Below the pieces are notes generated by a model that searched no databases, was not told the DNA's origin, and saw only the letters and a program-made list of their open reading frames with translations. Both the position numbers and the translations under genes were made by a program. DNA of 64,000 bases, taken from a virus. Location of the stretch: positions 1-64,000 of the IMG/VR virus record IMGVR_UViG_3300036818_000088. One strand, 5' to 3'. The number at the start of each line of letters is the position of its first letter. The first letter of the stretch is position 1. This document shows positions 1 to 27,223 of the stretch, one piece after another.

Positions 1-32
1 CAGAGCGGCGCGCAGGGCTTTCAGTGGGTTCT

Positions 33-320
33 TCATGATCCCTCCTCGGGAAAGGCGTGGTCGAAGGCGGCTGCGCACGTTCCCGCTGCCTCCCCTCTGT
101 GGGCACCTGGGTTCGGGCAGTCCTCCCAGAATGGCGGTCCTCCCTGTCCTTCGCCCTCGTAGACGAACTTCGCTGCTGCCTCTGTCGCCTCGTCGGAAAT
201 CACCCGCTCCCGCACCTTCGGTAGCACGGCTTCGAGGGCGACGCGCATACGCGGCCCTTGGTTCTCTGGCAGGCCCGCTGACTTCACGGCCGCCTCGACC
301 AACTCGTCCGGCACCTTCAT
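33..320 (-). CDS. Hypothetical phage protein (EAAAK..YE family), first gene of a leftward operon
   Basis: ATG at 320 follows SD AGGAGGAGG; stop overlaps the ATG (36) of a further leftward ORF that runs off the window. Confidence 0.7.
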   Translation of the reverse strand: MKVPDELVEAAVKSAGLPENQGPRMRVALEAVLPKVRERVISDEATEAAAKFVYEGEGQGGPPFWEDCPNPGAHRGEAAGTCAAAFDHAFPEEGS

Positions 321-334
321 CGCAACCTCCTCCT

Positions 335-379
335 GATCGGGTGTACCCGCTGAGCCTAGCATAGACTGAAGGAACTTCA
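335..379 (-). promoter_or_regulatory. Leftward promoter: TGAA-N5-TTCA palindrome, TGC-TAGGCT extended -10, TACACCCGATC leader box
   Basis: Minus strand reads TGAAGTTCCTTCA gtcta TGCTAGGCT cagcggg TACACCCGATC AGGAGGAGG. Confidence 0.8.
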
Positions 380-428
380 TCTAGCTCCCTTGCGGGATGG
401 CTCTGCCAAAGGGCTTAGACTCCCCGCC

Positions 429-1076
429 GTGGAGAACGGGAAACTGCCGAAGTCCGCTCTGGCACCGATTCCAGGCGGGGAACTCGCGAAGGATGCCGCA
501 GCGGCTTGGAACGCTCCTGGCGGGCCTGCCGACGCCGGACTGCGGCCGACCGGCTCACAATCGAGCTACCGGACCTATGACGAGCAGGTCGCGCTCTACA
601 AGCTCTACCAGGAAGGCAGGGGCAATCTCGCTGCGGTTCCCGGCACCTCCAACCACGGATGGGGGGTCGCGGTCGATCTCGCCGAAACGTGGATGCGGAC
701 TTGGATGGATGAGCATGGGGCCGCCTTTGGCTGGCGCAAGACCGAAGCTTTCAGTGAGTGGTGGCACGTTAATTACGACGGCTCCAAGCACTTCCCGACC
801 TTCGAGACCCTGAAGCGAGGATCGAAGGGCAAGCGCGTCAAGCACTTCACCAAGCGCCTCGCCTTCATCCACCGTCCCAACGGTGCCGCCTACCTGAAGA
901 GAGCCCCCGGCCGCTATGGCAAACGGGTCGAGGTCGCCGTGGGCGCCTTCCAGCTCAATCACGATCTCCGTGCAGATGGCGAGATCGGCCCGAAGACCGC
1001 CGCCAAGATCGACGCTGTCTTCCATAGGCAATATCGCGAGCGGCACAAAGCTCAGCCGCGAGGCCAGCACCGATGA
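429..1076 (+). CDS. Endolysin: M15/VanY-type D,D-peptidase plus C-terminal peptidoglycan-binding domain
   Basis: SYRTYDEQ, PGTSNHGWGVAVD, EWWH motifs; LKRGSKG..AFQ..HDLRADGEIGPKT; probable leaderless GTG 7 nt after TAGACT (416-421). Confidence 0.88.
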   Translation: MENGKLPKSALAPIPGGELAKDAAAAWNAPGGPADAGLRPTGSQSSYRTYDEQVALYKLYQEGRGNLAAVPGTSNHGWGVAVDLAETWMRTWMDEHGAAFGWRKTEAFSEWWHVNYDGSKHFPTFETLKRGSKGKRVKHFTKRLAFIHRPNGAAYLKRAPGRYGKRVEVAVGAFQLNHDLRADGEIGPKTAAKIDAVFHRQYRERHKAQPRGQHR

Positions 1077-1513
1077 GCACGGCAATCCTCGACCGCTTCA
1101 TGTCCAAGGTCGTCTTGAACGGAGGCGAGGACGAGTGCTGGACGTGGGCTGGCTATGTGATGCCGAATGGCTATGGGCAACACTCAATCAAGGGCAAGCA
1201 TGTCTATGCGCATCGTCTTTCCCATGAACTCTTCATTGGCCCGATCCCCGATGGCCTTCAGATCGACCATCTCTGTCGCAACCGCGCCTGCGTCAATCCG
1301 GCGCATCTTGAGGCCGTGACGAATCGGGAGAATCAGCTTCGTAGCGAGAAGACGCTTATCTCAAAGGCCCTTGCGACAACCCATTGCCCGAAGGGCCATC
1401 CCTACAGCCGAGAGAACACCTTTCTTCACTCCGATGGAAGCCGGAGGTGTCGTGAATGCGGGCGGGAAGCATGCCGCGCATATAGGGCAACACAGAAGCT
1501 GGCGGCAGCATGA
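1073..1513 (+). CDS. HNH homing endonuclease (HNH_3 type) with C-terminal Zn finger
   Basis: CWTW.G, YAHRLSHELFIGPIPDGLQIDHLCRNRACVNPAHLE, THCPKGHPY..RRCREC. Confidence 0.92.
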   Translation: MSTAILDRFMSKVVLNGGEDECWTWAGYVMPNGYGQHSIKGKHVYAHRLSHELFIGPIPDGLQIDHLCRNRACVNPAHLEAVTNRENQLRSEKTLISKALATTHCPKGHPYSRENTFLHSDGSRRCRECGREACRAYRATQKLAAA

Positions 1514-1977
1514 AAAGACGATGGAGCCTTCTCTGGGCAGCTCGCTTTGTCTCAGTCTGGGAGGGCTTCAGCCCCGTTGCCTATTTGGACATAATTGCGG
1601 TGCCTGCGATTTACACCTTGGGCTACGGGCATACGGGCAATGTCCATGCGGGCGAACGGGTCACGAAAGCGCAGGCGCTTCGCCTTCTCTCGTCTGACCT
1701 TCGGGTCGCGGCCCGAGCCGTCAAGCAGGGCATCCACGTCAAGCTCTCGGTGCGCCAGCGCATGGCTCTGATCGACCTCGCCTTCAACTGCGGCGGCGGC
1801 GCGGTCATCGGCTCGACCCTCGCCGCCAAGCTCAACGCAAAGGACTACAGGGGCGCCGCCGACTGCTTCCTCGAATGGGACCATGCGGGTGGCGTCGTCG
1901 TGCAGGGCCTCAAGAATCGTCGCGAGGCTGAGCGCGCCATGTTCCTGTCCAAGCCAAAGAAGCGGAGGAAGAAATGA
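1510..1977 (+). CDS. Phage lysozyme, GH24 (RrrD/P21-like)
   Basis: WEGFSPVAYLD..YTLGYGHT catalytic region; ALIDLAFNCG; GLKNRREAERAMF. Confidence 0.92.
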   Translation: MKRRWSLLWAARFVSVWEGFSPVAYLDIIAVPAIYTLGYGHTGNVHAGERVTKAQALRLLSSDLRVAARAVKQGIHVKLSVRQRMALIDLAFNCGGGAVIGSTLAAKLNAKDYRGAADCFLEWDHAGGVVVQGLKNRREAERAMFLSKPKKRRKK

Positions 1978-2333
1978 ATACCGATCCGAGTTCCAACATC
2001 AGCCGCTGGGTTACGTTCTTGCTCGGCCCCCTGATCCTGATCGCCAGCGGCTTCGTCGCGATCAAGGCCAAGTCCTGGTTCAACTACGACCTCGCCCCAG
2101 CCGAAGCGGCGGCCTACTTCACGACCATCATCGGCGGGATCGCGGCTGGCGTTGTGACTTGGGTTAGGAATCGCGGCAAATACGAGATCGCCAAAGCGAC
2201 CGGGATCGACGATGCCACCCTCGACCTGATCGCCAGCGCCATCGCCAGCAGGTTGCCGCAGGCCCCGAGTGCGCCATCGTCCGGTGCCGTTGGCCAAGCT
2301 TCAGGGACTCACCCCCTGACGCCGCCGCGCTGA
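1974..2333 (+). CDS. Putative holin (two hydrophobic segments)
   Basis: Two TM-like stretches directly after two lysins. Confidence 0.6.
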   Translation: MNTDPSSNISRWVTFLLGPLILIASGFVAIKAKSWFNYDLAPAEAAAYFTTIIGGIAAGVVTWVRNRGKYEIAKATGIDDATLDLIASAIASRLPQAPSAPSSGAVGQASGTHPLTPPR

Positions 2334-2377
2334 GCACCTGACAGGCGAAGTCGCGGCGCTGCTGTAACCTTGCCGGC

Positions 2378-2448
2378 GTAGGCATCGGATGCACGATCGG
2401 GTGTAATCGAAGCCATGGCGGGCGCCTTCGGGCGCCCGTCGTCTTTCT
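2378..2448 (+). ncRNA. Putative antisense small RNA (~70 nt) with exposed GAUCGG loop
   Basis: -10 TAACCT at 2365-2370; hairpin 2381-2414 with loop 2395-2400; terminator follows; seed GATCGGGTGTA is the reverse complement of the leader box at seven promoters. Confidence 0.7.
2415..2448 (+). terminator. Intrinsic terminator
   Basis: 12-bp stem ATGGCGGGCGCC / GGCGCCCGTCGT, cUUCGg loop, then CTTTCT. Confidence 0.8.
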
Positions 2449-2452
2449 AGGG

Positions 2453-2480
2453 TGGTAAGGTCCTTCACCACACCCGATCA
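2453..2480 (+). promoter_or_regulatory. Promoter of recombination operon with ACACCCGATC leader box
   Basis: TGG-TAAGGT (2453-2461), degenerate palindrome GTAAGGTCCTTCA, box 2470-2479, SD AAGGAGG. Confidence 0.75.
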
Positions 2481-2497
2481 GCTACAAGGAGGCCCCA

Positions 2498-3733
2498 TTG
2501 CCAGAGAAGACCGATCAGCCCGCGAGCACCGACCTCGCAGAGCGCGAGCCTTCCGCTGCCAACCCGCTCGCCCTGATCGACGACACCTTCACCAAAGACG
2601 AGGTCGGCGCGATAGCCAAGTTCATCGGCGTCTCTGCCGAGGACCCCGGCTTCCGCCCCTTCCTCGCCGTCGCCGCCTCGATGGGCCTCTCGCCGCTTAA
2701 CAGCGAGATCTGGCTGATTAAGGGCCGCCGCGAAGTAGGCGGCAAATGGGAGGATTTCTACCGCCCCGCCGCTGGCCGCGATGGCTTCCTGCGCAAGGCC
2801 GAAGAATCGCCGAAGTTCAGGGGCATCCGCTCCAACACCGTCTGCGCCAACGACACCTTCGAGGTCGAAGACGACGGCGAGGAGGTCAAGATGGTCCATC
2901 GCTTCAAGTCACTCAGCCCCAACGCCCCCAAAGGCAAGGAGGCTCGCTACCGAGGCCCCGTCATCGGCGCCTGGGCCAAGGTCTTCTTCCGCGACGGGCG
3001 CCCACCGCTCTTCTACTTCGCCCCTGCCCACGAGCACGTCAAGACGAAGGTCAAGGATGGCAACGTCGAATTCGCCGGCGCTTGGTCCTACACCTCGGCA
3101 ATGTGCGAGAAGGCCGCCCAGTCACGAGTGCTGCGCCTCGCCTTCCGCATCACCGGCATCGTCCCCGTCGATGAGCTGCGCTCCGATGATCCGCAGATGG
3201 TCGCCAGCTCGACCACTGCCACCGATGCCGACGGCGAGTCGATCGCCGATGATCCCGGTCCTAAGAACGCCGAGTTCATTGACGGCCTTGAGCAGGTGCC
3301 CGAGGAGCTGCGCAAGGAGCTGACCATCGCCCTCGAGCAGCTCAACGAGCTGATCCCCTTCTCTTGGACCCCCGCCAAGGTGCGAATGCGGCTAGGGTCG
3401 GGCTGCGATGAGGAGAAAGCCCGCGCCGTGCTTGAGGAGGTCGAAGCCGAGTTCAAGGCTCTGCGCGACAAGCAGGCCGAGCGCGAGGCCCGCGAAGTCG
3501 AGTCCGTCGAGGAGGCCGTGCAGGTCGTCTTGGCCCGCGATATCAAGCCGCCAGTCGAGCTTCTATACGAAGTGGATGTGGGCGAGCACGATTGGGTGCT
3601 GATCGAAGATGCGGTATTCGATCAGGAAGCTGCGCGCATGGTCCTCAAGACAGAGATGGGCGAAAAGACATTCAGCCCAACCGACGAGTTGGAAGTCCGC
3701 TCGCCACAGGACGCCAGCCCCGACGAGGGCTGA
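2498..3733 (+). CDS. recT: RecT/Bet-family single-strand annealing protein
   Basis: GLSPLNSEIWLI, GRDGFLRKA, IGAWAKV, AMCEKAAQSRVLRLAF; TTG start after AGGAGG; exonuclease partner downstream. Confidence 0.85.
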   Translation: MPEKTDQPASTDLAEREPSAANPLALIDDTFTKDEVGAIAKFIGVSAEDPGFRPFLAVAASMGLSPLNSEIWLIKGRREVGGKWEDFYRPAAGRDGFLRKAEESPKFRGIRSNTVCANDTFEVEDDGEEVKMVHRFKSLSPNAPKGKEARYRGPVIGAWAKVFFRDGRPPLFYFAPAHEHVKTKVKDGNVEFAGAWSYTSAMCEKAAQSRVLRLAFRITGIVPVDELRSDDPQMVASSTTATDADGESIADDPGPKNAEFIDGLEQVPEELRKELTIALEQLNELIPFSWTPAKVRMRLGSGCDEEKARAVLEEVEAEFKALRDKQAEREAREVESVEEAVQVVLARDIKPPVELLYEVDVGEHDWVLIEDAVFDQEAARMVLKTEMGEKTFSPTDELEVRSPQDASPDEG

Positions 3734-3736
3734 GTC

Positions 3737-3952
3737 GTGCAGATCCAGGTTCTAGCCCTCTACCTCGATGACGAGGGGAGGCCGCTGTGGAACTACAACC
3801 ACATTGAGGCCGTGCCGGCTACCGGCGACGCTGAGCAGATGCTGCTTGCGGCGAGAGGCAAGATCGACGATCATCTGCGCCGGGCCAAAGAGGCCATCGG
3901 CACGCAGGCCGAAGCCGACCTGAAACGCCTCGCCGATGAGGCGAAGCCATGA
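3737..3952 (+). CDS. Hypothetical protein
   Basis: Tightly packed ORF in operon. Confidence 0.6.
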   Translation: MQIQVLALYLDDEGRPLWNYNHIEAVPATGDAEQMLLAARGKIDDHLRRAKEAIGTQAEADLKRLADEAKP

Positions 3953-5184
3953 GCGAGCGCATGATCGCCCCGGTGCCCGAGGGGCCGATGAGCCTCGACG
4001 CGGTGATCGAGGCTCTGCCCAAGGTCCGCCAGTCGCTGCTCTCCAAGTTCGATGATTGCCCGTTGAGTTGCTACTTTGAGCTGCGCTGGGCGCAGGGCTG
4101 GTCGACGCACCCCCAGGCTCGCGGCACGATCTTCCACCGCTTCTGCGCCGAGGCGCTCAAAGAGATGAAAGTGCAGGACTCCGAAGGCATCCCCAAAGGC
4201 GTGGCCTTGGCAATCTTGGAGGAGGTGCTCGAGCAGCGCGGCGTCCCGGCTACCGAACGGGTGCGGGTGCCGCTGCGCGAGATCCCCACGCTGCGCATGG
4301 CGGCGATCAAGTTCGCCACCGACAACAGCTTCACGGTCCGCAACATCGTCGATGTCGAGAAGCGGCTGAACGCAAAGCTCAGCTACGTCGATGACGAAGG
4401 GACGGTCCGAGAGCGCGAGCTGACCGGCCAACTCGATGTCCTGGTCGCCGATCCCGACTACGACAAGGGGGCTATATGTGTCGACTTCAAGACGGGGTGG
4501 GGCCTGCCGCCCGAGCGCAATGCCGAGGATCGCGACGCGGCAGAGAAGGGCCTGAGCTACCACGGCTTCTTTCAGCAGCGCTTCTATAGCTGGCTCGTGA
4601 TGCGCAACTACCCCGACATCGACCGCGTGACCCTGCGCGAGTTCTACGTCTACCGCTCCAAAGCCCGCCCTGCGTCCATGCACCGCCGCGACCTCGATCG
4701 CGTCGAGAAGGAACTGAGCGACCTCGTGATGGAGCTCGACCGCTGCATCGCCTCGGGCAAGCCGAAGAAGCTGAGCTTCCCAGAGGTCTCGCCGTGGAAT
4801 CCCCAGCCCGGCAAGTCGTGTACCTGGTGCGTGGCCGGCCATCGCTGCCCGATCGAAGCCGATGTTCGCGAGGCGATAGCCGTACGCAGCCCTCAGGAGG
4901 CCGGAGAGGCCGTCGAGCGCCTGCAGGTCGCTGAAGCCGTCCGCAAATCTCACCGCGCCGCCCTGCGCCCCTGGGTTGAGGAGCACGGCCCGCAGGTCGC
5001 TCGCCATTCCAAGGGGAGGCTGCACTTCGGGCTCAAGACGAATACAGCCGGTGTGCCTGAATTGAGATTCTTCACGTCCCCTGGGAGTGACCGCGCTCCC
5101 TCGCGCAAAAAGGAAGACAAGGCTCTCGAGGACGCCATGCGCCGCTCGATTGAGACGGCGAAAGAGGAGAGGGAGGCAAGCTGA
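3949..5184 (+). CDS. PD-(D/E)XK (RecB/AddB-like) exonuclease, probable Fe-S cysteines
   Basis: DCP, GTIFH, VEK, GQLDVL, VDFKTG, Q..FY, CTWC..C. Confidence 0.85.
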   Translation: MSERMIAPVPEGPMSLDAVIEALPKVRQSLLSKFDDCPLSCYFELRWAQGWSTHPQARGTIFHRFCAEALKEMKVQDSEGIPKGVALAILEEVLEQRGVPATERVRVPLREIPTLRMAAIKFATDNSFTVRNIVDVEKRLNAKLSYVDDEGTVRERELTGQLDVLVADPDYDKGAICVDFKTGWGLPPERNAEDRDAAEKGLSYHGFFQQRFYSWLVMRNYPDIDRVTLREFYVYRSKARPASMHRRDLDRVEKELSDLVMELDRCIASGKPKKLSFPEVSPWNPQPGKSCTWCVAGHRCPIEADVREAIAVRSPQEAGEAVERLQVAEAVRKSHRAALRPWVEEHGPQVARHSKGRLHFGLKTNTAGVPELRFFTSPGSDRAPSRKKEDKALEDAMRRSIETAKEEREAS

Positions 5185-5378
5185 TGGCACAGGCCACATC
5201 GACAAAGCCCCTAGAAGTCGAGCTAATGGTTTGTCCCGTCTGCCGCTCCATCGACAAGCTCGCCGGTGCCTCTCATCTCGGCGTCAAGGGCTTCTGCGTC
5301 GGGCCGATGGGCAAAGGACACAAAAGAGCCCGCAGGGAGCCTGCGCAGTTCAAAGAGGTGGTCTCAGAGCAATGCTGA
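5184..5378 (+). CDS. Small Cys/His Zn-ribbon-like protein, copy 1
   Basis: CPVC..C..H; paralog of 5763-5957. Confidence 0.7.
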   Translation: MAQATSTKPLEVELMVCPVCRSIDKLAGASHLGVKGFCVGPMGKGHKRARREPAQFKEVVSEQC

Positions 5379-5563
5379 TCGGCACCCTGATCTTCGTGGC
5401 CGTCGCCGCTGCGCTCTTCGCCAGCGATCTCTTCTGGGAACTCGTCACCGGGCTTGCCCTGGTCGTCTTCGTCATCGGCGCAGTCCGTCTTGAACCAGCC
5501 CCGGCTCTGACCGCCTTGGCGCTGCTCTGCGGCTGCATCTGGCACTGGGGGAGGATGGCCTGA
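5372..5563 (+). CDS. Small membrane protein
   Basis: MLIGTLIFVAVAAALF..; highly hydrophobic; follows GAGG. Confidence 0.6.
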   Translation: MLIGTLIFVAVAAALFASDLFWELVTGLALVVFVIGAVRLEPAPALTALALLCGCIWHWGRMA

Positions 5564-5763
5564 TGCCCCGCGAAGATCAAAGCTTCGCCTTCTGCGGCTC
5601 CCAGAATGACAAAAAGGCCATCAGAGCTATCGCCCAAATAATCTACAAAGCGGGTTGCGTTTGTGCCGCAAAGATCGAGGTCACGCGCCAGGACAGCGAA
5701 CATGGGACGGCAATAGTCACTCATGAGGATTGCTGCCCGCTGGCGCGTGGGGAGGAGCGCTGA
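5563..5763 (+). CDS. Hypothetical protein (CxC..H..C)
   Basis: TGATG coupling at both ends; GCVC..VTHEDCCPL resembles 27224-27469. Confidence 0.6.
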   Translation: MPREDQSFAFCGSQNDKKAIRAIAQIIYKAGCVCAAKIEVTRQDSEHGTAIVTHEDCCPLARGEER

Positions 5764-5957
5764 TGGCGCAGGCCACGACCACCAAACCGCTCGAAATCGA
5801 CCTTCTCGTGTGCCCGACCTGCCGCACCGTCGACAAGCTCGCCGACGCCACAGCCCTCGGCATCAAGGGCTACTGCGTCGGCTCAGACACCGAGAGGCAC
5901 CCGAGGGTCCGCAGGGAGCCTGCGCGGTTCAGGGAGGTGGCTTCGGATGACCAATGA
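5763..5957 (+). CDS. Small Zn-ribbon-like protein, copy 2
   Basis: MAQATTTKPLEIDLLVCPTC.., close paralog of 5184-5378. Confidence 0.7.
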   Translation: MAQATTTKPLEIDLLVCPTCRTVDKLADATALGIKGYCVGSDTERHPRVRREPARFREVASDDQ

Positions 5958-6126
5958 GAACCGGAAAGCGCTAGCCAGGATACTGCTAGCGGTGTCGCTA
6001 TGGGCGGCGGGCTTGGGGATTTACTTCCTCCTCTCGCACGGCTCTCCGCGTGAATTTGGGATAGCAATGTCGGCGATTCTGGTCAGCATGGGGACCTCCA
6101 TCCTCTTCGACGAGAGGGAGGAGTAG
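5947..6126 (+). CDS. Small membrane protein (59 aa, absent from ORF track)
   Basis: MTNENRKALARILLAVSLWAAGLGIYFLL..; SD GGAGG. Confidence 0.55.
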   Translation: MTNENRKALARILLAVSLWAAGLGIYFLLSHGSPREFGIAMSAILVSMGTSILFDEREE

Positions 6127-6131
6127 CGCTG

Positions 6132-6323
6132 ATGGTGGTCTACGTCCTAATCCAAGGCATGTATGAGAACGAATACCCGACGGGTGTCTATGCAAGCGCG
6201 CTAGACGCGATGGACTCCGCGATGGGCAACTGGAGCGGAGACAAGGGTCGTTGGACGAATGATCTGGACTGGGACGATGCTGCTGAAGTCGTTGGCTATG
6301 TGGTGCGCGAGGAGGCCGACTGA
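6132..6323 (+). CDS. Hypothetical acidic protein
   Basis: VYVL..GVYAS motif common in small phage ORFs; coupled to next gene. Confidence 0.55.
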   Translation: MVVYVLIQGMYENEYPTGVYASALDAMDSAMGNWSGDKGRWTNDLDWDDAAEVVGYVVREEAD

Positions 6324-6973
6324 TGCCCCGCGTCCCCATCGTCCTCACTTGCGAGCTGGGCCACTCTACCGTCATCGGCCACCTATGGGAGCCAGTGAGC
6401 GATAAGGAGATTGACAAGCTGGCCGAACGCAGCGCCTTGCCAGCCGAGTGCGAGTGGCAGGTCGGAGAGTTCAGTGCCGCGAAGGGCGAAGGTTCCGCAA
6501 TGCGCTGCGCGGCGGCTTTTATCGGCCTCCCCCACGTCGAGGGCTGCGACCGCGAAACCGAGCAGCTCGCCCGCATCGGCGGCCAGAACGTCCGCACCCC
6601 CTTGCGCTCAAGCCCCAAGGAGCGCCCCCCTGAGGGGCCTCTGACGCCTTCTGAGTGGCGACGGCGTGTCTGGGACCGCCAGCGCGAGAAACCCGGTCTC
6701 CCGGCTCTGTGCGCCGTCACAGGGGAGCCTCTGAGCTGGAATGCAGACGAGGTCCATCACCCGCTCGACAAGCGCCTCCTGCGGGCCAAGGGCCTCTCTC
6801 ACCGCATCTGGGACGAGCGCAACGGCATGGCCGTCAAGCGGCAGGTCCATCTCGACCACACTTCACGGATGCGTCCGATCCCTCGGCGCTTCGTGCCGGC
6901 GAGCGCTTTTGAGTTCGCCAGGGAGATCGGCCTTTGGGCCATCGCCCGCCTCAACGAAGACCATCCCGAATAG
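6323..6973 (+). CDS. HNH-like nuclease domain protein
   Basis: WRRRVWDR..CAVTG..EVHHP..WDERNGMAV..H. Confidence 0.55.
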   Translation: MPRVPIVLTCELGHSTVIGHLWEPVSDKEIDKLAERSALPAECEWQVGEFSAAKGEGSAMRCAAAFIGLPHVEGCDRETEQLARIGGQNVRTPLRSSPKERPPEGPLTPSEWRRRVWDRQREKPGLPALCAVTGEPLSWNADEVHHPLDKRLLRAKGLSHRIWDERNGMAVKRQVHLDHTSRMRPIPRRFVPASAFEFAREIGLWAIARLNEDHPE

Positions 6974-6987
6974 AAAAGGAGCAGCAC

Positions 6988-7503
6988 ATGGCAGAGCAGC
7001 AACCGCCGGAGGGCCACGAAGGAGCACCGAAGGCCCACGATGGCGCAGAGAACGGCAACGGGAAGTCGATCGCCCAGCAGGCCGATCAGCCGCCCGTGCC
7101 CGAGGTATCGCCCACTCCGCTGGGCAACGAGAAGCAGATGCCGATCCCGAGCCTCTCCGGCGGGCGGCGCAAGCCGCCGGTCAAGGCCCGGATCATCATC
7201 ACGGCCGCAGCAGCCCCGGCGAGGGGACAGGTTTCCATCGAAGGCGAGCAACTGCTGATCTCGCGCGTCCGCTACTTCAAGGCGACCACGACGCCGCGCT
7301 TCGACGGGGAGGGCCGGGTCGAGTCCTTCGACTATGACCAGACGTTCAAGCCGACCTGGACCGAGGGCCTGCAGGACTTCCTCGACGCCAACGGGCTGAA
7401 GCTTGTGCGCCAAGAGGAGGAAGGCGATGAGGTCGACCCTGGCGACATTGTCGACATCGAGAGGCTGCGCGCTCCGGTCACAGAGGAGGCAATCCCCAGC
7501 TAA
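6988..7503 (+). CDS. Hypothetical protein
   Basis: ATG after AAAGGAG. Confidence 0.6.
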   Translation: MAEQQPPEGHEGAPKAHDGAENGNGKSIAQQADQPPVPEVSPTPLGNEKQMPIPSLSGGRRKPPVKARIIITAAAAPARGQVSIEGEQLLISRVRYFKATTTPRFDGEGRVESFDYDQTFKPTWTEGLQDFLDANGLKLVRQEEEGDEVDPGDIVDIERLRAPVTEEAIPS

Positions 7504-7512
7504 CCTCTCTCG

Positions 7513-7847
7513 CCCTGGCTCGGACGGGGCCATCGGGTGCTAACGCCACATGTTCGGCGTAGCCCGAGAAGCCGCTAGCGCGGAGTCGTCACAGCTAGCG
7601 AACAAAAGGGGGCCGGAAGCGCTGAATGCACCGCAGAGATTCGCGATGCATGGGAGGTCAGCGTTCCCGGCCCCACAAGATCGTAGCGGCATAGACCTGA
7701 GAAAAGGAGAGGCCGAGGCGCGGTCGAACTTCGGAAAGTCCGGTGTCCTCATTGAGAACGGCGCCTCGGCCCAAGACGAACTCGGCTACTATAGCCGCCG
7801 TCGCAGCGGCAAAGCAGTAGGAGAGCCCTTCGGGGTACAAGACGAAC
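7513..7847 (+). ncRNA. Highly structured ~335-nt leader or ncRNA upstream of the replication genes
   Basis: -10 TAACCT 7501-7506; at least six consecutive stems; repeated linker CAAGA(T)CG at 7676, 7772 and 7838. Confidence 0.6.
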
Positions 7848-7856
7848 AGGAGGACA

Positions 7857-8582
7857 ATGAGTGCCCCACGGCGTCCGCAGAACGCTGCCGAAGCGCAGTT
7901 CTACGATGAGGCGATTGAGGAGGGCTGGCTTCCGATGAAGCGAGGATGGCCCGACTTCTTTCTCAGCCGCGCCGGCGAGATCGCTGTTGTCGAGATCAAG
8001 CCGAAGCATTCGAAACGGCTGAAGTCCGAGCAAATGAAGGTGCTCGAGGCTTTGGCGGGATTCGGCGTGCCAGCCTTCCGCTGGTCGCCTGACGGCGGCT
8101 TCGAGCGAATCGTGCCAGACGCAACATTGGGGGGTAAGGGGGGAGCAGTTTCCTCTTCTAAGAAAACGAAAAGAGGAAAACAACAAACATCTCTTTGGGA
8201 TGGGGGGTCCGGGGGGGGACCCTTTTTGGCCTCTCACTCCGAAGTGGATGCTGTCTGGGCTGCTTATGTCGAATTCATAAAGCCGCGCTGCGAGGTTGCA
8301 GGCGTTGAGGAGAGATCCTTCATCCACGCTGCACTCAAAGCGGCCAGCACCGATGAGGTCATTGCCTGCATCCGGGTTTGCTCTGAGTCCGACTTCCATA
8401 TGAAGCGCGGCCAGTTCAAGAATCGCAAGGGCGGCAAGTACACCGGTATCGGAAAGATCCTCAAGCCTCGGCCTCGTCTTGGCGAAACCCAGCGCTCGCG
8501 CATCGAATGGTGGCTGGACCGCGCCGAAGAGTCCGGCTCCGCCACCGACGAATTCGGCTGGACCGAGGAGGAGAGAACGTAG
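7857..8582 (+). CDS. VRR-NUC-type nuclease domain fused to a phage replication-initiator-like C-terminus
   Basis: GWPDFF..VVEIK..LKSEQ..L; G-rich low-complexity linker; EVDAVWAAY..; directly precedes DnaC-like loader. Confidence 0.6.
   Translation: MSAPRRPQNAAEAQFYDEAIEEGWLPMKRGWPDFFLSRAGEIAVVEIKPKHSKRLKSEQMKVLEALAGFGVPAFRWSPDGGFERIVPDATLGGKGGAVSSSKKTKRGKQQTSLWDGGSGGGPFLASHSEVDAVWAAYVEFIKPRCEVAGVEERSFIHAALKAASTDEVIACIRVCSESDFHMKRGQFKNRKGGKYTGIGKILKPRPRLGETQRSRIEWWLDRAEESGSATDEFGWTEEERT
8129..8218. other. Candidate replication origin inside the rep gene
   Basis: G6-TAA-G6 and G6-TCC-G8 flank an AT-rich inverted repeat TTTCCTCTT..AAGAGGAAA. Confidence 0.45.
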
Positions 8583-10300: not shown

Positions 10301-10330
10301 TATGCTGGCTGAAGCAAATTCACCCGATCA
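10301..10330 (+). promoter_or_regulatory. Promoter with TGAA-N5-TTCA palindrome and CACCCGATC box
   Basis: TATGCT 10301-10306; TGAAGCAAATTCA 10310-10322; box 10321-10329; SD GAGGAG. Confidence 0.7.
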
Positions 10331-10342: not shown

Positions 10343-10534
10343 ATGCCAAAGCTGATCGCCGCCGGTGTACTCATTGCCGTTGGTCTCATCGTGATTGTCT
10401 CGCAGGTCTTTCGCAGCGATCCCAACGTGCCCGTCTTCTTCGGTGGCCTGCTGCTCTGCCTACTCGGCGGCATTGGCTTCTCTGATTCTGAAACCGAAAC
10501 CCAAATCGGCAACTACCGAGAGCGCCGCCGGTGA
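10343..10534 (+). CDS. Small 2-TM membrane protein
   Basis: Two hydrophobic segments; SD GAGGAG. Confidence 0.65.
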   Translation: MPKLIAAGVLIAVGLIVIVSQVFRSDPNVPVFFGGLLLCLLGGIGFSDSETETQIGNYRERRR

Positions 10535-10848
10535 TCGGGAAGCGCTACATCGACGGGGACAAGCTGCTGGAGCGGGCTTTCGGAAGGCTCAACGCGCCAC
10601 GCCCCATCGTCGACTGGCTGAAGCGCCAGCCGAGATCACCGAAGCTGATCGGCCGCCAGAAGGCCGCTGAGATCCTCGGCGTAGGCTCGCCCTACATGAC
10701 CCACTTCATCAAGTCCGGGCAGCTCAAACCGATCAGCGTCGAAGGCGGCAAGGACGCTTATGACGAGATCGAAGTCAAGGCACTCGCGGCGAAGCGAGCG
10801 CGCGAACGTCGGGAGAAGGCGAAGAGGGAGGCTGACGCTCATGCCTGA
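10531..10848 (+). CDS. MerR/excisionase-like HTH protein
   Basis: LIGRQKAAEILGV..GQLKP..YDEIEVKAL. Confidence 0.7.
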   Translation: MIGKRYIDGDKLLERAFGRLNAPRPIVDWLKRQPRSPKLIGRQKAAEILGVGSPYMTHFIKSGQLKPISVEGGKDAYDEIEVKALAAKRARERREKAKREADAHA

Positions 10849-16501: not shown

Positions 16502-17041
16502 GTAAGCAGGAGGAGGCGATCGAACGACTGATTCGCGAGTACGAGGACCGGGCCTCGGCACAGAACGCCTATCGCCAGGTCGCCGCCACATATCGAGGGG
16601 TCATCAGAGACCTTCAAAAGCTGCTCTCTCCGGTTGATTACGAGGTCAAGAGGACCGACCATGAGTAAGCTAGGGGGGGACGAGATCAAGCTGACCGAAG
16701 CGCAACGACGGGTGCTGAGAGACGCTGCGCGCGACTTGCACGGAGAACGGACCTGCCACGTCGGTCCAGGTGGCGCCCGCGCTGCCAAGGCGCTCGAAGC
16801 TCTCGGCCTTGGCACTTACTACCGCCGGACACAGCGCGGCAGCCGCTTCAACCGCGAAGTCTCGCCGTCGCGCTTCGTCATCAGGGAGGCCGGGATCGAT
16901 GCTCTCGACTTGGGGACCGACCATGAGCTGAAGGCGAGCGGGTCACCACCGTCAACAGGCAGGGCTGGCTCGTTGGGCTTGAGGTTCTGCACTCCCCCCT
17001 ACGGCAGGGAGGTGGGGAGGGATGAGCGACAGCGGAGCTAA
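16498..17041 (+). CDS. Two small hypothetical ORFs (16498-16668, 16661-17041)
   Basis: Both start ATGAGTAAGC; second has KLTEAQRRVL winged-helix-like motif. Confidence 0.5.
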
Positions 17042-18268: not shown

Positions 18269-19303
18269 GTGCGAGTCGGATCGGTCTTCAGCGGACACGG
18301 AGCGCTCGACTTCGGCCTCCACCTCGCCGGCCTTGAGCATGGCTGGTTCTGCGAGTCCGACCCCTTCCGCCGAGACATCCTCTCCAAGCGCTGGCCCGGA
18401 GTCCCAATCTTCGAGGACATCCGAGGACTCGGAGCAGATGACGCTGGATCCATCGATGTCATCGCTGGCGGCTTCCCCTGCCGAGGTATCTCAGCAGCAG
18501 GAAAGCGAGAGGGCTTCGGCCACCCCGAAACCGTTCTGTGGCGAGAGATGCTCCGGACCATTCGCGAGTTTCGACCCCGCTACGTCATCGTGGAGAACGT
18601 GCGCGATCTCCTTGTTCTCCGACCACCCGGAGGACACCCCGGAGACCTCTGGCGAGAGGTTCTTGGAGGGCTTTCCGCGAGCGGGTTCGATGCTGTCTGG
18701 GACGTGCTACCAGCAGCAGCCTTCGGCGCCCCTCACCTCCGTCAAAGGGTCGTCGCCATTGCTGCCCACTCCGACCGTGCAGGATGGGAGCAACGTGGAG
18801 GGCGAGAGCCAGACACGGCGCAACTCCCCGCCGCTGAACGCACTGGTCCGGCTGCTCCCAACCCCAACGGCCAACGACGACAACAAGTCCCCGGAGGCGC
18901 ATCTGGCGATGAAGCGGCGGATGTCGGAGACGGACGGCTCCGACCGCACGCAGATCACGAGCTTGCAGGTACTGGCGAAGGCGGGGTTCCAGCAGCCGAT
19001 GCCGCTCCTTCCGACCCTGACCAGCGCCTCCTACAAACAGGGCGGAACGGCAGCGGAGCAGACGGAGATCAAGCGGATTCTCGGGGTCTTGCCGAGTGGG
19101 GAGAGTACGGATTCGCCATCGAGCGATGGGAGCGAGTCCACGGGCCTGCGCCTAGCCCCCTCATTCGTAGAGTGGATGATGGGTCTTCCCCAGGGGTGGT
19201 CCGATCCCGACTGTCTGCTCTCGGCGACGGAGTTCTCGTTGATCTGGGAATCACAGCGGGGCGCTACGTCCTCGACCTCGACAGAGAAGTAGCCGATGCC
19301 TAA
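18269..19303 (+). CDS. dcm: C5-cytosine DNA methyltransferase (alpha chain, lacks motif IX)
   Basis: FSGHG (I), GGFPC (IV), ENV (VI), PHLRQRV (VIII), RLSALGDGV (X). Confidence 0.93.
   Translation: MRVGSVFSGHGALDFGLHLAGLEHGWFCESDPFRRDILSKRWPGVPIFEDIRGLGADDAGSIDVIAGGFPCRGISAAGKREGFGHPETVLWREMLRTIREFRPRYVIVENVRDLLVLRPPGGHPGDLWREVLGGLSASGFDAVWDVLPAAAFGAPHLRQRVVAIAAHSDRAGWEQRGGREPDTAQLPAAERTGPAAPNPNGQRRQQVPGGASGDEAADVGDGRLRPHADHELAGTGEGGVPAADAAPSDPDQRLLQTGRNGSGADGDQADSRGLAEWGEYGFAIERWERVHGPAPSPLIRRVDDGSSPGVVRSRLSALGDGVLVDLGITAGRYVLDLDREVADA
18438..19292 (+). CDS. Nested alternative-frame methyltransferase beta chain carrying motif IX
   Basis: Own GGAG-N3-ATG; three LLPT(P/L)T repeats; RLAPSFVEWMMGLPQGW. 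Confidence 0.7.
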   Translation: MTLDPSMSSLAASPAEVSQQQESERASATPKPFCGERCSGPFASFDPATSSWRTCAISLFSDHPEDTPETSGERFLEGFPRAGSMLSGTCYQQQPSAPLTSVKGSSPLLPTPTVQDGSNVEGESQTRRNSPPLNALVRLLPTPTANDDNKSPEAHLAMKRRMSETDGSDRTQITSLQVLAKAGFQQPMPLLPTLTSASYKQGGTAAEQTEIKRILGVLPSGESTDSPSSDGSESTGLRLAPSFVEWMMGLPQGWSDPDCLLSATEFSLIWESQRGATSSTSTEK

Positions 19304-20111: not shown

Positions 20112-20851
20112 AGCCCTACTACTCCGAGGGCGGGATTGAGATTTGGCATGGCGATTGTCGAGAGGTGCTGCCGCAGATCGGCCCGGTCGACGCGGTCCTT
20201 ACTGATCCGCCCTACGGCGACACGTCCCTCGACTGGGACCAGCCGGTCAAGGGATGGCTGGACCTGATCGACACTCGCCAGGTTTGGTGCTTCGGGTCAA
20301 TGCGCTTCTGGCTCGAGCACGGTTCCGACTTCCGAGAGAACTGGACCTATGCGCAAGAGATCATCTGGGAGAAGCACAACGGGTCAAGCTTCCACGCCGA
20401 TCGTTTCAAGCGGGTGCACGAGTTGGCCATCCACTGGTATCGCGGCGCGTGGTCGGCGCTCTATCGGAACACGCCGGTCACCCTCGACGCGACTCCGCGA
20501 ACAGTTCGACGCAAGCAGCGCCCGCCGCACACCGGCCATATCGAGGCCGGTTCCTATCGCTCCCTTGACGGTGGCCTCAAGCTCATGCGCTCAGTGCTGC
20601 AGGTCCGCTCTGAGCACGGCCGCGCCGTACACCCGTGCCAGAAGCCGCTCGGCATCCTTACCCCGCTGCTTGGCTGCTCGGTTCCCCAGGGTGGCCTGGT
20701 CCTCGATCCGTTCATGGGCAGTGGGACCACGCTGCTTGCAGCTAAGAACCTGAATCGCCGAGCCATCGGTATCGAGATCGAGGAGCGCTTCTGTGAGGTC
20801 GCCGTCCAACGACTGGCGCAGGAAGTGCTCGATGTCGAGGCGGCATGCTGA
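20108..20851 (+). CDS. N4-C/N6-A DNA methyltransferase (beta class)
   Basis: GDC, TDPPY, HPCQKP, VLDPFMGSGTT, IGIEI. Confidence 0.93.
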   Translation: MKPYYSEGGIEIWHGDCREVLPQIGPVDAVLTDPPYGDTSLDWDQPVKGWLDLIDTRQVWCFGSMRFWLEHGSDFRENWTYAQEIIWEKHNGSSFHADRFKRVHELAIHWYRGAWSALYRNTPVTLDATPRTVRRKQRPPHTGHIEAGSYRSLDGGLKLMRSVLQVRSEHGRAVHPCQKPLGILTPLLGCSVPQGGLVLDPFMGSGTTLLAAKNLNRRAIGIEIEERFCEVAVQRLAQEVLDVEAAC

Positions 20852-20893
20852 ACCTCCTTCACCACATGCTAAGATGCCCTGCACACCCGATCA
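20849..20893 (+). promoter_or_regulatory. Promoter: palindrome, extended -10 and ACACCCGATC box
   Basis: TGAACCTCCTTCA ccaca TGCTAAGAT gccctgc ACACCCGATCA. Confidence 0.85.
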
Positions 20894-20917
20894 TCGACTC
20901 CTGAAGGAGCGTGCCAG

Positions 20918-21492
20918 ATGCCCGACGATTTCCTCATCACCGAATTCAAGGACTCGGCCGAGATCCCGCCGGAGGTTGCCGAGAGACAGTTCGAAGTATA
21001 CCGCCGCCTCATGAGCACCCGGATCTTCGATCATCAGCGCGACTGCCCCGAAGATGTCCAACGCCGCAGCTTCCCCCCTGTCGTAGGCCCCGGCCGCGGT
21101 CGCCCCCTCAAGCCGTGAGCGAGCCTTTCGAGCTGCGCGGTCGCAAGCTCTACCAACAGAGCGAACGGGTAAAACTCAGCCCCGGCGACAGCGCAGAAGT
21201 CAACCGTCGCCAGGCCCGCGCGATGCAAGATGCCGTCGCCAAGGCTCGCGCAGAGGGTCGGCTGACGGTTGCCGATGCCCGTGGCGAGCTAGGCGTCCTG
21301 CATGAAGTCCTGCGCCAACTCAATGTCGCCGGCTCACTTCCCGTCGGCATCCGCCTCGCCCCCGCCGAGCGCGAGTACGGTCTCCGCACCAAGGTCCAGG
21401 CCGCCCAGCGCCAGCGTCGCCGTGCCGAGAAGAAAGCCCGCGCCGCAGGTCGAGCACCGAAGAAATCGAAGTCGCGCAAGCGTCGCGGCTAG
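20918..21492 (+). CDS. Two hypothetical ORFs (20918-21118, 21115-21492)
   Basis: SD AAGGAG; GTGA overlap; basic C-terminus. Confidence 0.55.
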
Positions 21493-24931: not shown

Positions 24932-24957
24932 TGCTAGGCTGCCCCTGCACCCGATCC
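24932..24957 (+). promoter_or_regulatory. Promoter with TGCACCCGATC box (no TGAA palindrome)
   Basis: TGCTAGGCT gcccc TGCACCCGATC ct AAGGAG. Confidence 0.7.
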
Positions 24958-24971: not shown

Positions 24972-26779
24972 ATGCAGAGCAGCACGCCTGAGATACCAGA
25001 GGAGGCAGAGGAGACTGCCTTGGACAACGCGCACGTTGGCTGGCGGGTACATCCCGACTCCTCGGAGGCGAACCACATTCGCCGTGCCCTCCAGGCCGCT
25101 GCCCCGGTCCTCCGCCAGCAGGGGGCTGAGGAAGCGGAGCAGAAGCTTGAAAGCTGGTGGAAAGACACCACAAACTACTGGCATCAGCGCGCTGGGGAGC
25201 TTGAACAGCAGCTAGGCGTCGAACGCGAGGCGGCCATTGCGGAGTTCCTGCAACGGGCGCGATGGGCACAGGAAGACTCCGAGAAGCACAGGGCGCGGGG
25301 TGATAATGAAGCGGCCCAGCTAGCCCGTGAGCGAGAGCGAACCTACGCCCTCGCCATAACCTATCTGCGGGAGTTCCCTGACAATCCCTCTGCCCTTCGC
25401 GCCGCCCTCGATAATCAGGAGGCTCACTGATGCCATCCGACGACCTGATCCTCCCCCCCGGCTCCGATAGGCCCCCTACCGAGGGCGCAGCGCTGCTGGG
25501 CAACGAGGCCAAGCACCTCGCCGCCCAGCGCGCAGGGCTCTACTGCACCTCCTGCGGGCAGTCGATGGACGAGCCGGGCTGGGAGTACTTCTCTGTGCGC
25601 TCCGATGTCCGCGAAGGCGTCCCCGTCATCGTCAGCGGCATCGCCTACATCTGCAACCGCGACTGCTGCACCGAAGCCCGCTCGGCACTTGAGAAGACAG
25701 CCGCAGGCCGTCGCCCTTGGCAGCCGTGGCACATCTTCTACGTCGAGGTGCCCGATGCCCTGCCGCCAGTTGAGCCTGGCGAGGAGGCCGAAGCGGAGAC
25801 CTCCGATGCCTAACCCGACAGAGCCGACGCGGTATCGACTCGCCTCAGTTAAGGGCTATGTCGGGAGGCTTGTTGAGGACCGAACTGGGGGCATAGTTCT
25901 CTGGCGCGACCACGAGAAAGCCGTACAGCGCATAGCCGAGAACGAGAGGGAGCGGCTGGCGAGGAAAGAGCGACCCGGCCTTCCACCAATCCTGATGTCA
26001 CTTCATGATGCCGCGCCCGAGTTGGCGGCGATCATCGCGGCGGCACTGACTGTTGCCGAGGAGGAGGTTCTGAAGGAAGTTGCCGACTGCCTCCGCCCGT
26101 TCGTGGAGGCCAAGCCGCTGCCCGGCTCGAAGGACGACCGCTATCAGGTCACGGTAGATGGCGCGGCGCTTTGCGAGGCCAAGGAGCTGCTTTCCCACCC
26201 GTTCCTCGCCGCCCCACCCGACAACCAAGAGACTCCCTAATGGCTGAGGGAGCCAGGCACGAGCTCGCCGACCACATCGCCACGATCCTCAAGCGCGCCT
26301 ATCCGAACGAAGTCGCCAAGGACGAACTCGAAGACCAGGCCGGCGTCAGCTCGAAAGACCTCCGCGCCGCCCTCGATTCGCTCAGCGAGGAAGGCGAACT
26401 AGACCCTCTCGCCGAGCACTTCCGCTGGCGCGACCCGAGCGGCCAAGACAAGCCGCCGCCCGACCAGCCCGATGAAGAGGACAGGCAGAGCGCCACGGCG
26501 CCAGCCAACACGACCGCTGGCGGAGCGACAGGCAAACTCGACCTGAAGGTGGCGATCGGTTTCGCCATCGACAATCCCGAGGACGACGAAGGCGTCAAGC
26601 AGCAGGCCCAGCAGATCATCGAACAGATCAAGAGCGCCCTTGAGGATATGCCCGGCATGGGAGTCGCGGTCAGCGCCAAGCGCCTTGAGGTCTTTGATCG
26701 CCCTCGCGTGCTGTTCGACGCCGCTGAGGAGGCGAGCGTTGAGGAGGCAGAGCCAGAAGCGCCCGAGGAAGAGCAGTAG
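24972..26779 (+). CDS. Four hypothetical ORFs (24972-25430, 25430-25813 with CxxC..CxxxC, 25806-26240, 26240-26779 with winged-helix-like N-terminus)
   Basis: Translationally coupled; SD motifs. Confidence 0.6.
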
Positions 26780-26804: not shown

Positions 26805-27161
26805 ATGCAGGCAGGAACTGCGACAGCGCCGCGCCGCCAGCAGACGATGGATGCGCTGGCTATGGCGAACCGTCGTCGGCAAGACCACAAGAATCTGAAA
26901 TGGGAGATCGCATCCGGTGCCGTGACAGCCAAGGCGGCGTTCGCCGACCCCCGCGCCATCGGTGCCTTCACGGTCGGGAATTTGCTCATTGCGCAACGCG
27001 GCTGGGGTGAGCGGAAAGCGATCAGGTTCCTAATGGCCATCGGCGCAACCTCGGCGGTCCTCGTTAAGCCCGTCGACAAGCTGACGGAGCGCCAGCGCGA
27101 CATCTTGCTGCGGGCGCTTGACCGCCCCTTCGCCGTGCCAGTCGATGGCGACGTATGGTGA
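26805..27161 (+). CDS. mihF: Actinobacterial integration host factor (mIHF, S13-like H2TH) homologue
   Basis: ALAMANRRR..LKWEIASG..VGNLLIAQRGWGERKA..VDKLTERQR. Confidence 0.75.
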   Translation: MQAGTATAPRRQQTMDALAMANRRRQDHKNLKWEIASGAVTAKAAFADPRAIGAFTVGNLLIAQRGWGERKAIRFLMAIGATSAVLVKPVDKLTERQRDILLRALDRPFAVPVDGDVW

Positions 27162-27204
27162 AGTAGCTTCAGCTATGTGCTAATGTCCACGGCACACCCG
27201 ATCA
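27159..27204 (+). promoter_or_regulatory. Promoter: palindrome, extended -10 and ACACCCGATC box
   Basis: TGAAGTAGCTTCA gctatg TGCTAATGT ccacggc ACACCCGATCA. Confidence 0.85.
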
Positions 27205-27223
27205 AACGACTCCTCATGGGATC

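Follow-up and report, generated by a model that had tools for sequence, protein, structure and literature searches.

Background

Phage antisense RNAs such as C4, CI, CA, sar and OOP each control one neighbouring operon, while the known trans-acting small RNAs (sRNAs) of phages mostly target host genes. RNAIII and the Rsa RNAs (with UCCC loops) of Staphylococcus aureus and the actinobacterial 6C RNA act independently of Hfq, through a G- or C-rich loop which pairs with a motif near the ribosome-binding site of many mRNAs. At the DNA level, the stoperators bound by gp71 of mycobacteriophage L5 (Cluster A) are asymmetric protein-bound sites of ~13 bp, which are found in short intergenic gaps of many operons and are co-oriented with transcription. 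The start-associated sequence (SAS) and extended SAS (ESAS) of the Cluster K mycobacteriophages form a short asymmetric repeat present in 11-19 copies, in one orientation, upstream of gene starts in the non-structural half (PMC3203893). An inverted repeat is often located immediately upstream and one reverse copy lies away from a gene start; stoperators are cited as a contrast, and the authors did not decide between an RNA and a protein as the reader of the SAS (PMC3203893). No RNA that controls many operons of its own phage via a common leader is listed in a 2025 review of phage-derived sRNAs (PMC12197685). Here, a locus is described from the first 64 kb (64,000 nucleotides; hereafter the window) of the IMG/VR virus record IMGVR_UViG_3300036818_000088 (76,181 bp, 64% GC, 92% complete according to CheckV), in which a candidate small RNA unit at 2365-2448 carries the reverse complement (the anti-box) of a short C-rich motif (the box) that is located at the predicted transcript start of seven promoters. 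Positions without a genome label are those of the window, and its genome is denoted G000.

The favoured reading, which is held at a probability of roughly 0.55, is that this locus and its counterparts in related phages specify an antisense RNA of 70-100 nt, which would act in trans on the 5' tag (the box as carried at the start of the transcript) of the box operons. Complementarity at the RNA level and the geometry of one RNA facing many leaders are well supported by the genome comparisons below; from these we infer the production of the RNA, its action in trans and the sign and timing of its effect. As to the sign, either repression or activation/stabilisation may result.

The candidate small RNA and its anti-box

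The candidate unit is located between the lysis cassette and the recT promoter, and comprises the following elements:

390-2333, + strand: lysis cassette, coding for a VanY/peptidoglycan-binding endolysin, an HNH endonuclease, a phage lysozyme and a 119-aa protein
2365-2370, + strand: -10-like hexamer TAACCT of the candidate small RNA, read in the sequence
2377-2448, + strand: predicted small RNA of ~70 nt, a 5' hairpin followed by an intrinsic terminator, from the fold, with inferred ends
2381-2414, + strand: anti-box hairpin of 12 pairs with two A.A mismatches, the loop GAUCGG and GUGUA in the 3' arm
2395-2405, + strand: anti-box GAUCGGGUGUA, the reverse complement of the box, spanning the hairpin loop and 3' arm
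2415-2448, + strand: intrinsic terminator with a 12-bp GC stem, a UUCG loop and a U-rich tail

The -10, the 12-pair hairpin with its GAUCGG loop and the UUCG terminator, which had been placed at 2365-2448 in a preceding reading of the bare DNA (the sequence-only reading), are present both in the sequence and in the RNA fold. The fold of 2371-2450 has a free energy of -40.9 kcal/mol (z = -3.9) and none of 200 shuffles is as stable. A simple terminator scan omits the hairpin at 2419-2438, where the extended stem leaves only four T in the tail window; the terminator hairpin is nevertheless unambiguous in the thermodynamic fold. Between the stop codon at 2333 and the hairpin there is no terminator, and the anti-box hairpin may, from its position, also constitute the 3' end (3' untranslated region, UTR) of the lysis-cassette mRNA. 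The unit contains no conserved open reading frame (ORF), no tRNA or tmRNA was detected in the window with ARAGORN, and peptide coding by an 11-codon ATG frame inside the terminator was rejected, this frame not being conserved in the related phage genome G009.

The hexamer TAGACT occurs only three times in the window, against 7.5 expected. All three copies are intergenic and promoter-like and lack a box, including those at 416-421 and 41929-41934. The former lies 7 nt 5' of the GTG at 429-431, a possible endolysin start that would be read from a leaderless mRNA. These sites may represent a second promoter class, without a tag and serving lysis and structural genes, and the -10 of the small RNA may be a further member.

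Seven boxes at the +1 position of a promoter cassette

The exact 9-mer CACCCGATC is found nine times in the window against 0.81 expected, with a largest shuffle count of four, so the earlier estimate of about one chance occurrence against nine copies holds; a scan of the entire 76-kb record likewise gives nine copies, and its backwards control none. Matches to YACACCCGATC with at most one mismatch number eight against 2.0 expected, a count reached in 0 of 100 shuffles. Seven boxes are intergenic and co-oriented with the gene behind them, the end of the box being 12-26 nt 5' of the start codon, and their listing in the sequence-only reading is confirmed along with the assignment of the genes concerned (the lysis cassette upstream of the candidate unit, and recT/exonuclease, Ku-like and RNase H genes behind boxes). 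The eighth copy is reversed and is the anti-box itself, 2395-2405(-), while the ninth copy of the 9-mer (33809-33817), which lies within the ORF 33352-33987 without promoter context, is probably due to chance. The seven boxes and associated promoter elements are:

335-345, - strand: box TACACCCGATC, leader of a divergent 95-aa gene (320-33), with TGCTAGGCT at 353-361(-) and a palindrome at 367-379
2453-2461, + strand: extended -10 TGgTAAGGT of the recT operon promoter, in place of which G009 has TGGTAATGT and the related genome G006 TGGTAAGTT
2469-2479, + strand: box CACACCCGATC, leader of a gene for a RecT-like single-strand annealing protein (SSAP; 2498-3733), followed by genes for an exonuclease, a DnaC-like loader and RusA
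10319-10329, + strand: box TTCACCCGATC, leader of an operon coding for a 63-aa membrane protein, a MerR/Xis-like helix-turn-helix (HTH) protein and a Ku-like protein
20882-20892, + strand: box CACACCCGATC, leader of a small gene (20918-21118) upstream of the terminase large subunit gene, with a palindrome at 20849-20861 and TGCTAAGAT at 20867-20875
24946-24956, + strand: box TGCACCCGATC, leader of a 152-aa gene (24972-25430), with one G.U against the anti-box and TGCTAGGCT at 24932-24940
27193-27203, + strand: box CACACCCGATC, leader of a 79-aa gene (27230-27469), with a palindrome at 27159-27171 and TGCTAATGT at 27178-27186
35964-35974, + strand: box TACACCCGATC, leader of an 87-aa gene and genes for RNase H (36244-36765) and an HTH protein (36740-37240), with a palindrome at 35931-35943 and TGCTACGAT at 35950-35958
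367-379, 10310-10322, 20849-20861, 27159-27171, 35931-35943, 41896-41908 and 44707-44719: copies of the palindrome TGAA-N5-TTCA

While the box is a real leader motif, as had been proposed, it is not free-standing and instead forms the +1 part of a promoter cassette with the TGAA-N5-TTCA palindrome. Alignment of the seven sites gives the order palindrome, 5-6 nt, TGCTAnnnT, 5-7 nt, box, 0-14 nt and Shine-Dalgarno sequence (SD). The 76-kb genome contains no more than seven copies of the pattern TG[CT]TAnnnT, five of which sit 5-7 nt 5' of a box. Six boxes follow a TGnTAnnnT -10 at a constant distance, and a plain TAnnnT precedes the seventh (10319), in agreement with the earlier placement of the boxes at about +1. 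This last site is atypical, with the -10 coming first and the palindrome at 10310-10322 overlapping the box. As the usual spacing from a -10 to the start is 6-8 nt, the box would make up about the first ten nucleotides of each cassette transcript. The palindrome, of which the window contains seven copies against 0.43 expected, is found upstream of five boxes at around -35 of the box promoters, and is likely to be the operator for a dimeric regulator.

In the leaders 20893-20917 and 27204-27229, as well as the leaders at 33919(-), 50387 and 72797 in G006, either CGACUCCUGAAGGAG or CUUCCUGAUGGAGG is located just 3' of the box. These leaders thus contain a CUCC or CUUCC anti-SD that can pair with the SD, which may provide a second layer of translational control.

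Conservation and covariation in eight genomes

Relatives were collected from IMG/VR and GTDB records by alignment-based scans with the terminase, RecT and exonuclease proteins. Seven of these were usable, and their exonucleases share 43-63% identity with that of the window. The genomes compared, with their palindromes, boxes or tags and the reverse copies of these, are:

G000 (genome of the window) and G009 (IMGVR_UViG_3300045935_000128, a 22-kb fragment): box ACACCCGAUC, reverse copy GAUCGGGUGU
G006 (79 kb): palindrome GGTAAG-N3-CTTACC, box and tag CACCACCCGAAC, reverse copy GUUCGGGUGGUG
G008 (53 kb): box and tag GUUACCCGAUC, reverse copy GAUCGAGUAAC with one central A.C mismatch
G011 (76 kb): box and tag UACCCCGAGC, reverse copy GCUCGGGGUG, the extra C (ACCCCGA) of the former being matched by an extra G
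G012 (IMGVR_UViG_3300044899_000017, 78 kb, complete with direct terminal repeats): palindrome GATAAC-N3-GTTATC, tag (U/C)ACCCGAG(C/U)
G013 (86 kb, complete with direct terminal repeats): palindrome GATAAC-N3-GTTATC, tag (U/C)ACCCGAG(C/U), box UACCCGAGU, reverse copy ACUCGGGUA
G014 (IMGVR_UViG_3300031823_000006, 70 kb): palindrome GGGTAACGCTGTTAC, tag ACCCGAGC, box UACCCGAGC, reverse copy GCUCGGGUA

The cassette type, consisting of a palindrome, a TAnnnT -10, a C-rich +1 tag and an SD, is shared by all seven relatives, with the palindrome and tag varying by clade. Box variants among them include ACACCCGAUC, CACCACCCGAAC, GUUACCCGAUC, UACCCGAG(U/C) and UACCCCGAGC, and each genome has 3 to 11 tags linked to promoters; in G013, for example, TACCCGAGT occurs eight times against 0 in the control.

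The gap between the last gene of the lysis cassette and the SSAP gene has the same order in all eight genomes, namely a TAnnnT hexamer, 16-41 nt, a reverse copy of the genome's own tag, a U-tailed terminator, the cassette -10, the tag, the SD, the SSAP start and the exonuclease gene. A single TAnnnT is located 22-47 nt 5' of the anti-box in each genome (TAACCT, TAGTCT, TAGACT, TAGAAT, TATTCT, TACGAT, TATCAT and TAGGCT). Such hexamers are rare on the + strand (0.0007-0.0015 per position), and the probability of at least one within 30 nt is 0.02-0.04 per genome. A strong GC hairpin with a stem of ~12-16 bp and a U-rich tail occupies the same place in 8/8 genomes, such that a rightward unit of 72-100 nt, with predicted ends, can be delimited in each. 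No leftward promoter cassette was found beside the reverse copy in any of the eight genomes, the - strand side holding the terminator, and a near -10 is present there in G006 alone (TGCTATCCG), at the wrong spacing. A leftward promoter at 2395-2405, which the sequence-only reading had named as an objection to itself, was rejected, there being neither a cassette nor a TAnnnT on that strand in 7/8 genomes. An invertible promoter switch between inverted repeats was likewise rejected, as the segment is only 63 bp and the other boxes would be left unexplained. A resemblance or complementarity of the box or anti-box to 16S rRNA was considered as well and set aside, since a core of 6 nt is not long enough to inform on this.

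On the in-register pair count, the reverse copy tracks the tag variant of its own genome. On the 3' side of the tag GAUC is paired with GAUC, GAAC with GUUC and GAG(U/C) with (A/G)CUC, while on the 5' side CAC is paired with GUG, CCAC with GUGG and GUUAC with GUAAC. This covariation spans at least five box variants, including one indel, and gives in-register helices of 8-16 bp at 3-11 promoter-linked boxes per genome; the recT box of G012 has one mismatch on its 5' side against the anti-box. Covariation between seed and box in related phages, with retention of the hairpin/terminator unit, had been set out beforehand as a check and is borne out in the eight genomes. Of the four refuting conditions named in the sequence-only reading, three were examined in silico, and the idea withstood each of them. 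Between G000 and G009 the anti-box hairpin is identical at 31/34 positions, and at 24/24 over GCACGATCGGGTGTAATCGAAGCC (the anti-box and 3' arm), in comparison with 70-72% for the flanking genes, and this unbroken identity has the signature of purifying selection. In G000 and G006, distant boxes fit the anti-box better than the recT box does, and the anti-box is therefore not tuned only to the neighbouring recT box.

Pairing and exposure of the anti-box

The anti-box forms an in-register helix of 9-11 bp with each of the seven window boxes. When the small RNA is cofolded with each leader, the ddG ranges from -8 to -17 kcal/mol, versus -0.5 to -8 kcal/mol with a scrambled box, and the minimum free energy structure holds the box/anti-box helix. 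A cross-genome RNAduplex matrix of the small RNAs against the leaders was uninformative, as GC-rich sequences give spurious long duplexes, and the in-register pair count was used instead.

The core of the anti-box (CGGG and its neighbours) is located in a hairpin loop in G000, G009, G012 and G014. In G006 it lies in an open internal region, in G011 and G013 a part of it is in a loop, and in G008 it is unexposed. When the anti-box and terminator were held fixed and the flanks shuffled, the unpaired probability of the core was 0.67-0.85 in five of the eight genomes versus 0.30-0.41 with shuffled flanks, and no more than 15 of 200 shuffles matched the native value. The stems that close the loop differ yet pair (GCU/AGC in G012, ACU/AGU in G013 and UUGC/GCGG in G014), and a G.U in the G000 hairpin is an A-U in G009. 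Several box variants, including that at 24946, four G006 sites and the common GAGCUG and GAGUUG forms of G012 and G013, retain pairing via G.U. As a sign of RNA pairing these variants are only suggestive, because non-wobble mismatches are also present near the 5' edge of the box/anti-box helix.

Additional anti-box copies in the relatives

A second anti-box, CUCGGGUAC, occurs in G012 at 63742-63815 in the loop of a hairpin (CUUCGG/CCGAAG stem), followed by a GC hairpin. It occupies the 3' end of a gene, directly 5' of another box promoter, and could be a second anti-tag RNA of the 3'-UTR type. In G013 an extra anti-box is found immediately 5' of its first promoter. G009 contains GGAUCGGGU and ACCCGAUC at 16995-17032 (flipped coordinates), which form a local inverted repeat around the predicted GTG start of the endolysin gene. 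Here ACCCGAUC lies just after the GTG and the extra anti-box can pair with it, making a cis hairpin over the start of this lysis gene possible; the inverted repeat is absent from the window's own genome. A tRNA-like sequence, resembling by eye a tRNA-Leu with anticodon UAA and a long variable arm, is located just 5' of a box promoter in G014 (~18526-18610, flipped coordinates), and its acceptor stem (GCUCGGG/CCCGAGC) contains the core of box and anti-box by happenstance.

The phage, its host and its wider relatives

The genes of the window genome are nearly all encoded on the + strand, and those for a terminase large subunit, portal, head protease and tail sheath are indicative of a myovirus-like phage, which is uncultured. 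Among isolated phages, no match to window 1-8000 was obtained with megablast, and tblastn with the terminase gave matches only at 25% identity or less. The protein relatives are labelled Solirubrobacterales or Conexibacter at source, which points to a soil actinobacterium of the Solirubrobacterales as the probable host; the first of these labels derives in part from the unpublished genome G010 and in part from public records. The 92%-complete record gave no match to Phage_integrase or Resolvase, and thus neither a tyrosine nor a serine recombinase; the phage looks virulent, although the absence of an integrase is no proof of such a lifestyle.

Around 20 further relatives from Logan/ENA assemblies are known by their proteins and include contigs of 70-80 kb with terminases 55-78% identical; the box/anti-box comparison was restricted to the genomes listed above and these were left out. 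Exact-peptide scans of IMG/VR with a single protein (RecT or terminase) gave no match, while the exact promoter and box DNA pattern gave only five matches there, all unrelated and single-copy. Metagenome contigs scanned by RecT alignment yielded only remote relatives (27-28%). Genome contigs gave no match to RecT; with the terminase they gave two contigs of Solirubrobacterales metagenome-assembled genomes, one of which is the unpublished G010. In the distant relatives L053 (a contig of G010) and L007, whose terminases are 50-52% identical, a TGnTAnnnT -10 followed by a +1 tag is kept and the tag is different, namely GTCACCCTT or GTCACCGAC, of which GTCACCCTT in L053 rests on the unpublished genome. 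The terminase large subunits P0005, P0006 and P0027 of related phages are 850-990 aa in length, carry Hint/intein domains (PF13403, PF14890) and are intein-containing versions of the 602-aa terminase of the window. In the lysis cassette, the HNH endonuclease gene (1073-1513; PHROG 826, E = 8e-53) has been inserted between the two endolysin genes, and G009 lacks it at that place.

Proposed mechanism

Under the favoured reading, 2365-2448 would be a small non-coding transcription unit, read from a sigma-A-type -10 through a 5' hairpin and ended by an intrinsic terminator. Its product would be an RNA of ~70 nt, and the 3' ends of lysis-cassette transcripts may be a further source of this RNA. The seven promoters, each with palindromic operator, TGCTAnnnT and tag, would start their transcripts with the C-rich yACACCCGAUC, thereby tagging the recombination/replication operon, the Ku operon, the pre-terminase unit, the RNase H unit and the small-gene units. 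The G-rich loop and 3' arm (GAUCGGGUGUA) would pair with the tag at the 5' end, the helix then growing to 9-11 bp and ending 0-14 nt 5' of the SD, and one RNA would thereby act post-transcriptionally on the entire promoter class. The likeliest effect would be either less 30S access or changed 5'-end-dependent decay. Reduced 30S access is the simplest outcome because the helix ends so close to the SD, while decay may change in either direction because the helix covers the 5' end. The result would be a temporal (early/middle-to-late) switch rather than immunity, since no integrase or resolvase was found, and the RNA immunity that had been suggested in the sequence-only reading is unlikely for the same reason.

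A broader formulation, which is tentative and held at a little under even confidence, is that of an address-tag system. Operator-controlled promoters would write a tag of ~10 nt on their transcripts, and a small RNA made where the lysis cassette ends, from a promoter without a tag, would read this tag by its loop, switching the transcript class during infection. The features of a trans-encoded base-pairing sRNA, namely an own -10, a Rho-independent terminator, an accessible seed and covarying complementarity, are all found in silico.

Alternative explanations

Several observations weigh against the trans-acting RNA. No -35 element is evident for the small-RNA promoter. In G008 the reverse copy meets the box with a central A.C mismatch and its loop exposure is poor, and in G009 the box helices are limited to 9 bp. 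With only ~5 independent lineages available, the statistics of covariation are thin, and covariation of box and reverse copy is, taken alone, also expected for a DNA site present in two copies. All eight genomes have the same core, ACCCGA, and because it never changes, the box probably has another role, as a start-site or initial-transcript element or as a protein site. The anti-box is always located 74-141 nt upstream of the recT box, and in G012 and G013 the recT leader is its best match. Finally, extra anti-box copies adjoin boxes in G012 (63.75 kb), G013 (559-567) and G009 (16995-17005), and therefore cis pairing or a bracketing DNA site fits these as well.

The location of the anti-box next to the recT box in 8/8 genomes would be accounted for by a cis-acting RNA. 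On read-through transcripts, originating in the lysis cassette or at the small promoter, the anti-box would pair with the box in the recT leader 74-141 nt downstream, looping over the terminator and altering the translation, processing or stability of the recT mRNA, and the other boxes would match only via the shared cassette. The side-by-side pairs in G012 (63.75 kb), G013 (559-600) and G009 (16995-17032), the last of which would enclose the endolysin start codon, agree with this explanation, as does the recT leader being the best complement in G012 and G013. Very strong terminators, however, stand between the anti-box and the recT box, and read-through should therefore be rare; the conserved, dedicated -10 just upstream would make a short separate RNA. 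Distant boxes furthermore surpass the adjacent one in G000 and G006, and a short RNA, once accumulated, could not avoid the identical tags elsewhere. Action in cis is thus considered unlikely, if worth keeping in view. A DNA operator, in which the box would be an asymmetric +1 site for a phage DNA-binding protein (a repressor or roadblock, as in the L5 stoperators) and the reverse copy an auxiliary operator, for example for looping, is distinctly improbable. Such a site would explain the overlap of the box with the start site of every cassette promoter, its co-orientation with transcription and the conservation of ACCCGA in distant relatives, as well as the direct/reverse covariation, and HTH proteins that could be considered in this regard are encoded at 10531-10848 and 36740-37240. 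These promoters, however, already carry a separate palindromic operator, and the reverse-to-direct spacings of 74, 75, 75, ~89, ~92, ~141 and ~112 bp, with ~30, 34 and 67 bp for the extra pairs, show no helical phasing. The rightward -10, the terminator, the display in loops with changing stems and the G.U-compatible variants would be left unexplained, and a lysogenic repressor system is not indicated, no integrase having been found. Least probable by far is that the box is a mere initial-transcribed or start-site element preferred by the host RNA polymerase and the reverse copy a functionless by-product of a local inverted duplication. The cassettes are clearly mobile and repeated, and distant relatives have a different tag (GTCACCCTT, in L053 of the unpublished G010) at +1 after a like -10, both of which fit this view. 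A by-product would not be expected to be kept at one syntenic place in eight genomes with exonucleases of 43-63% identity, to track the box variants, insertion included, or to retain the 24/24-nt stretch of G000 and G009 in a background of 70% identity.

Comparison with known systems

The trans-acting RNA resembles P1/P7 C4, P4 CI and N15 CA, phage RNAs of ~70-100 nt whose loops pair with short leader boxes to control downstream genes (general knowledge and PMC12197685). The entire window, however, has no gathering-level match in Rfam, and a permissive scan of 2330-2500 with the C4 model (RF01695, clan CL00128) gave 13.8 bits (cut-off 45, E = 3.3), a match restricted to the terminator hairpin. 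The covariance-model check that the sequence-only reading had called for therefore indicates no family membership, and the candidate small RNA is not a C4/CI family RNA. C4, CI and CA act on targets in their own operon and serve lysogenic immunity, and C4 is cut from a precursor. In contrast, the candidate unit is bounded by a -10 and a terminator of its own, in a genome that yielded no integrase match. The targets of the C4 clan (an immunity operon with an antirepressor, or P4 seqA/seqC) are also in the same operon, whereas here there are seven separate promoter units distributed over 335-35974, of which only the recT leader is adjacent. RNAIII, the Rsa RNAs and 6C differ in being host-encoded and in recognising the SD itself as the shared motif, while the tag would be a dedicated 5' sequence written by the phage via its promoter cassette.

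The stoperators belong to a temperate phage, are bound by a repressor and are independent of promoters, whereas the box is fixed to the +1 of one promoter class and its reverse copy has the features of an RNA gene, with a -10, loop display and a terminator. The closest described layout is that of SAS/ESAS. The seven boxes are all co-oriented with their genes, one of which is divergent; five have a palindrome upstream, and the only reverse copy (2395-2405) lies away from a gene start, which matches that arrangement by analogy and not by homology. The sequences are unrelated and the hosts differ, and the SAS (GGGATAGGAGCCC, 13 bp) includes the SD and lies 3-7 bp from the start codon, while the box is located at +1, apart from the SD, with 12-26 nt between it and the start codon.

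No described counterpart was found for the multi-operon 5'-tag geometry, although the kind of regulator itself, a phage antisense RNA, is known. If the favoured reading is true, a phage RNA governs a regulon of its own dispersed operons through a shared 5' tag, which would be a new way to time the lytic programme on top of the palindromic operator of the same promoters. Different phages carry different matched tag/anti-tag pairs; for high-GC Gram-positive bacteria, a compact orthogonal pair of this kind would become available as a means of gene control. A testable hypothesis would also be gained for the start-associated motifs of actinobacteriophages, whose function has been open since 2011, and the Cluster K SAS repeats, with their lone reverse copy, might be understood in the same way.

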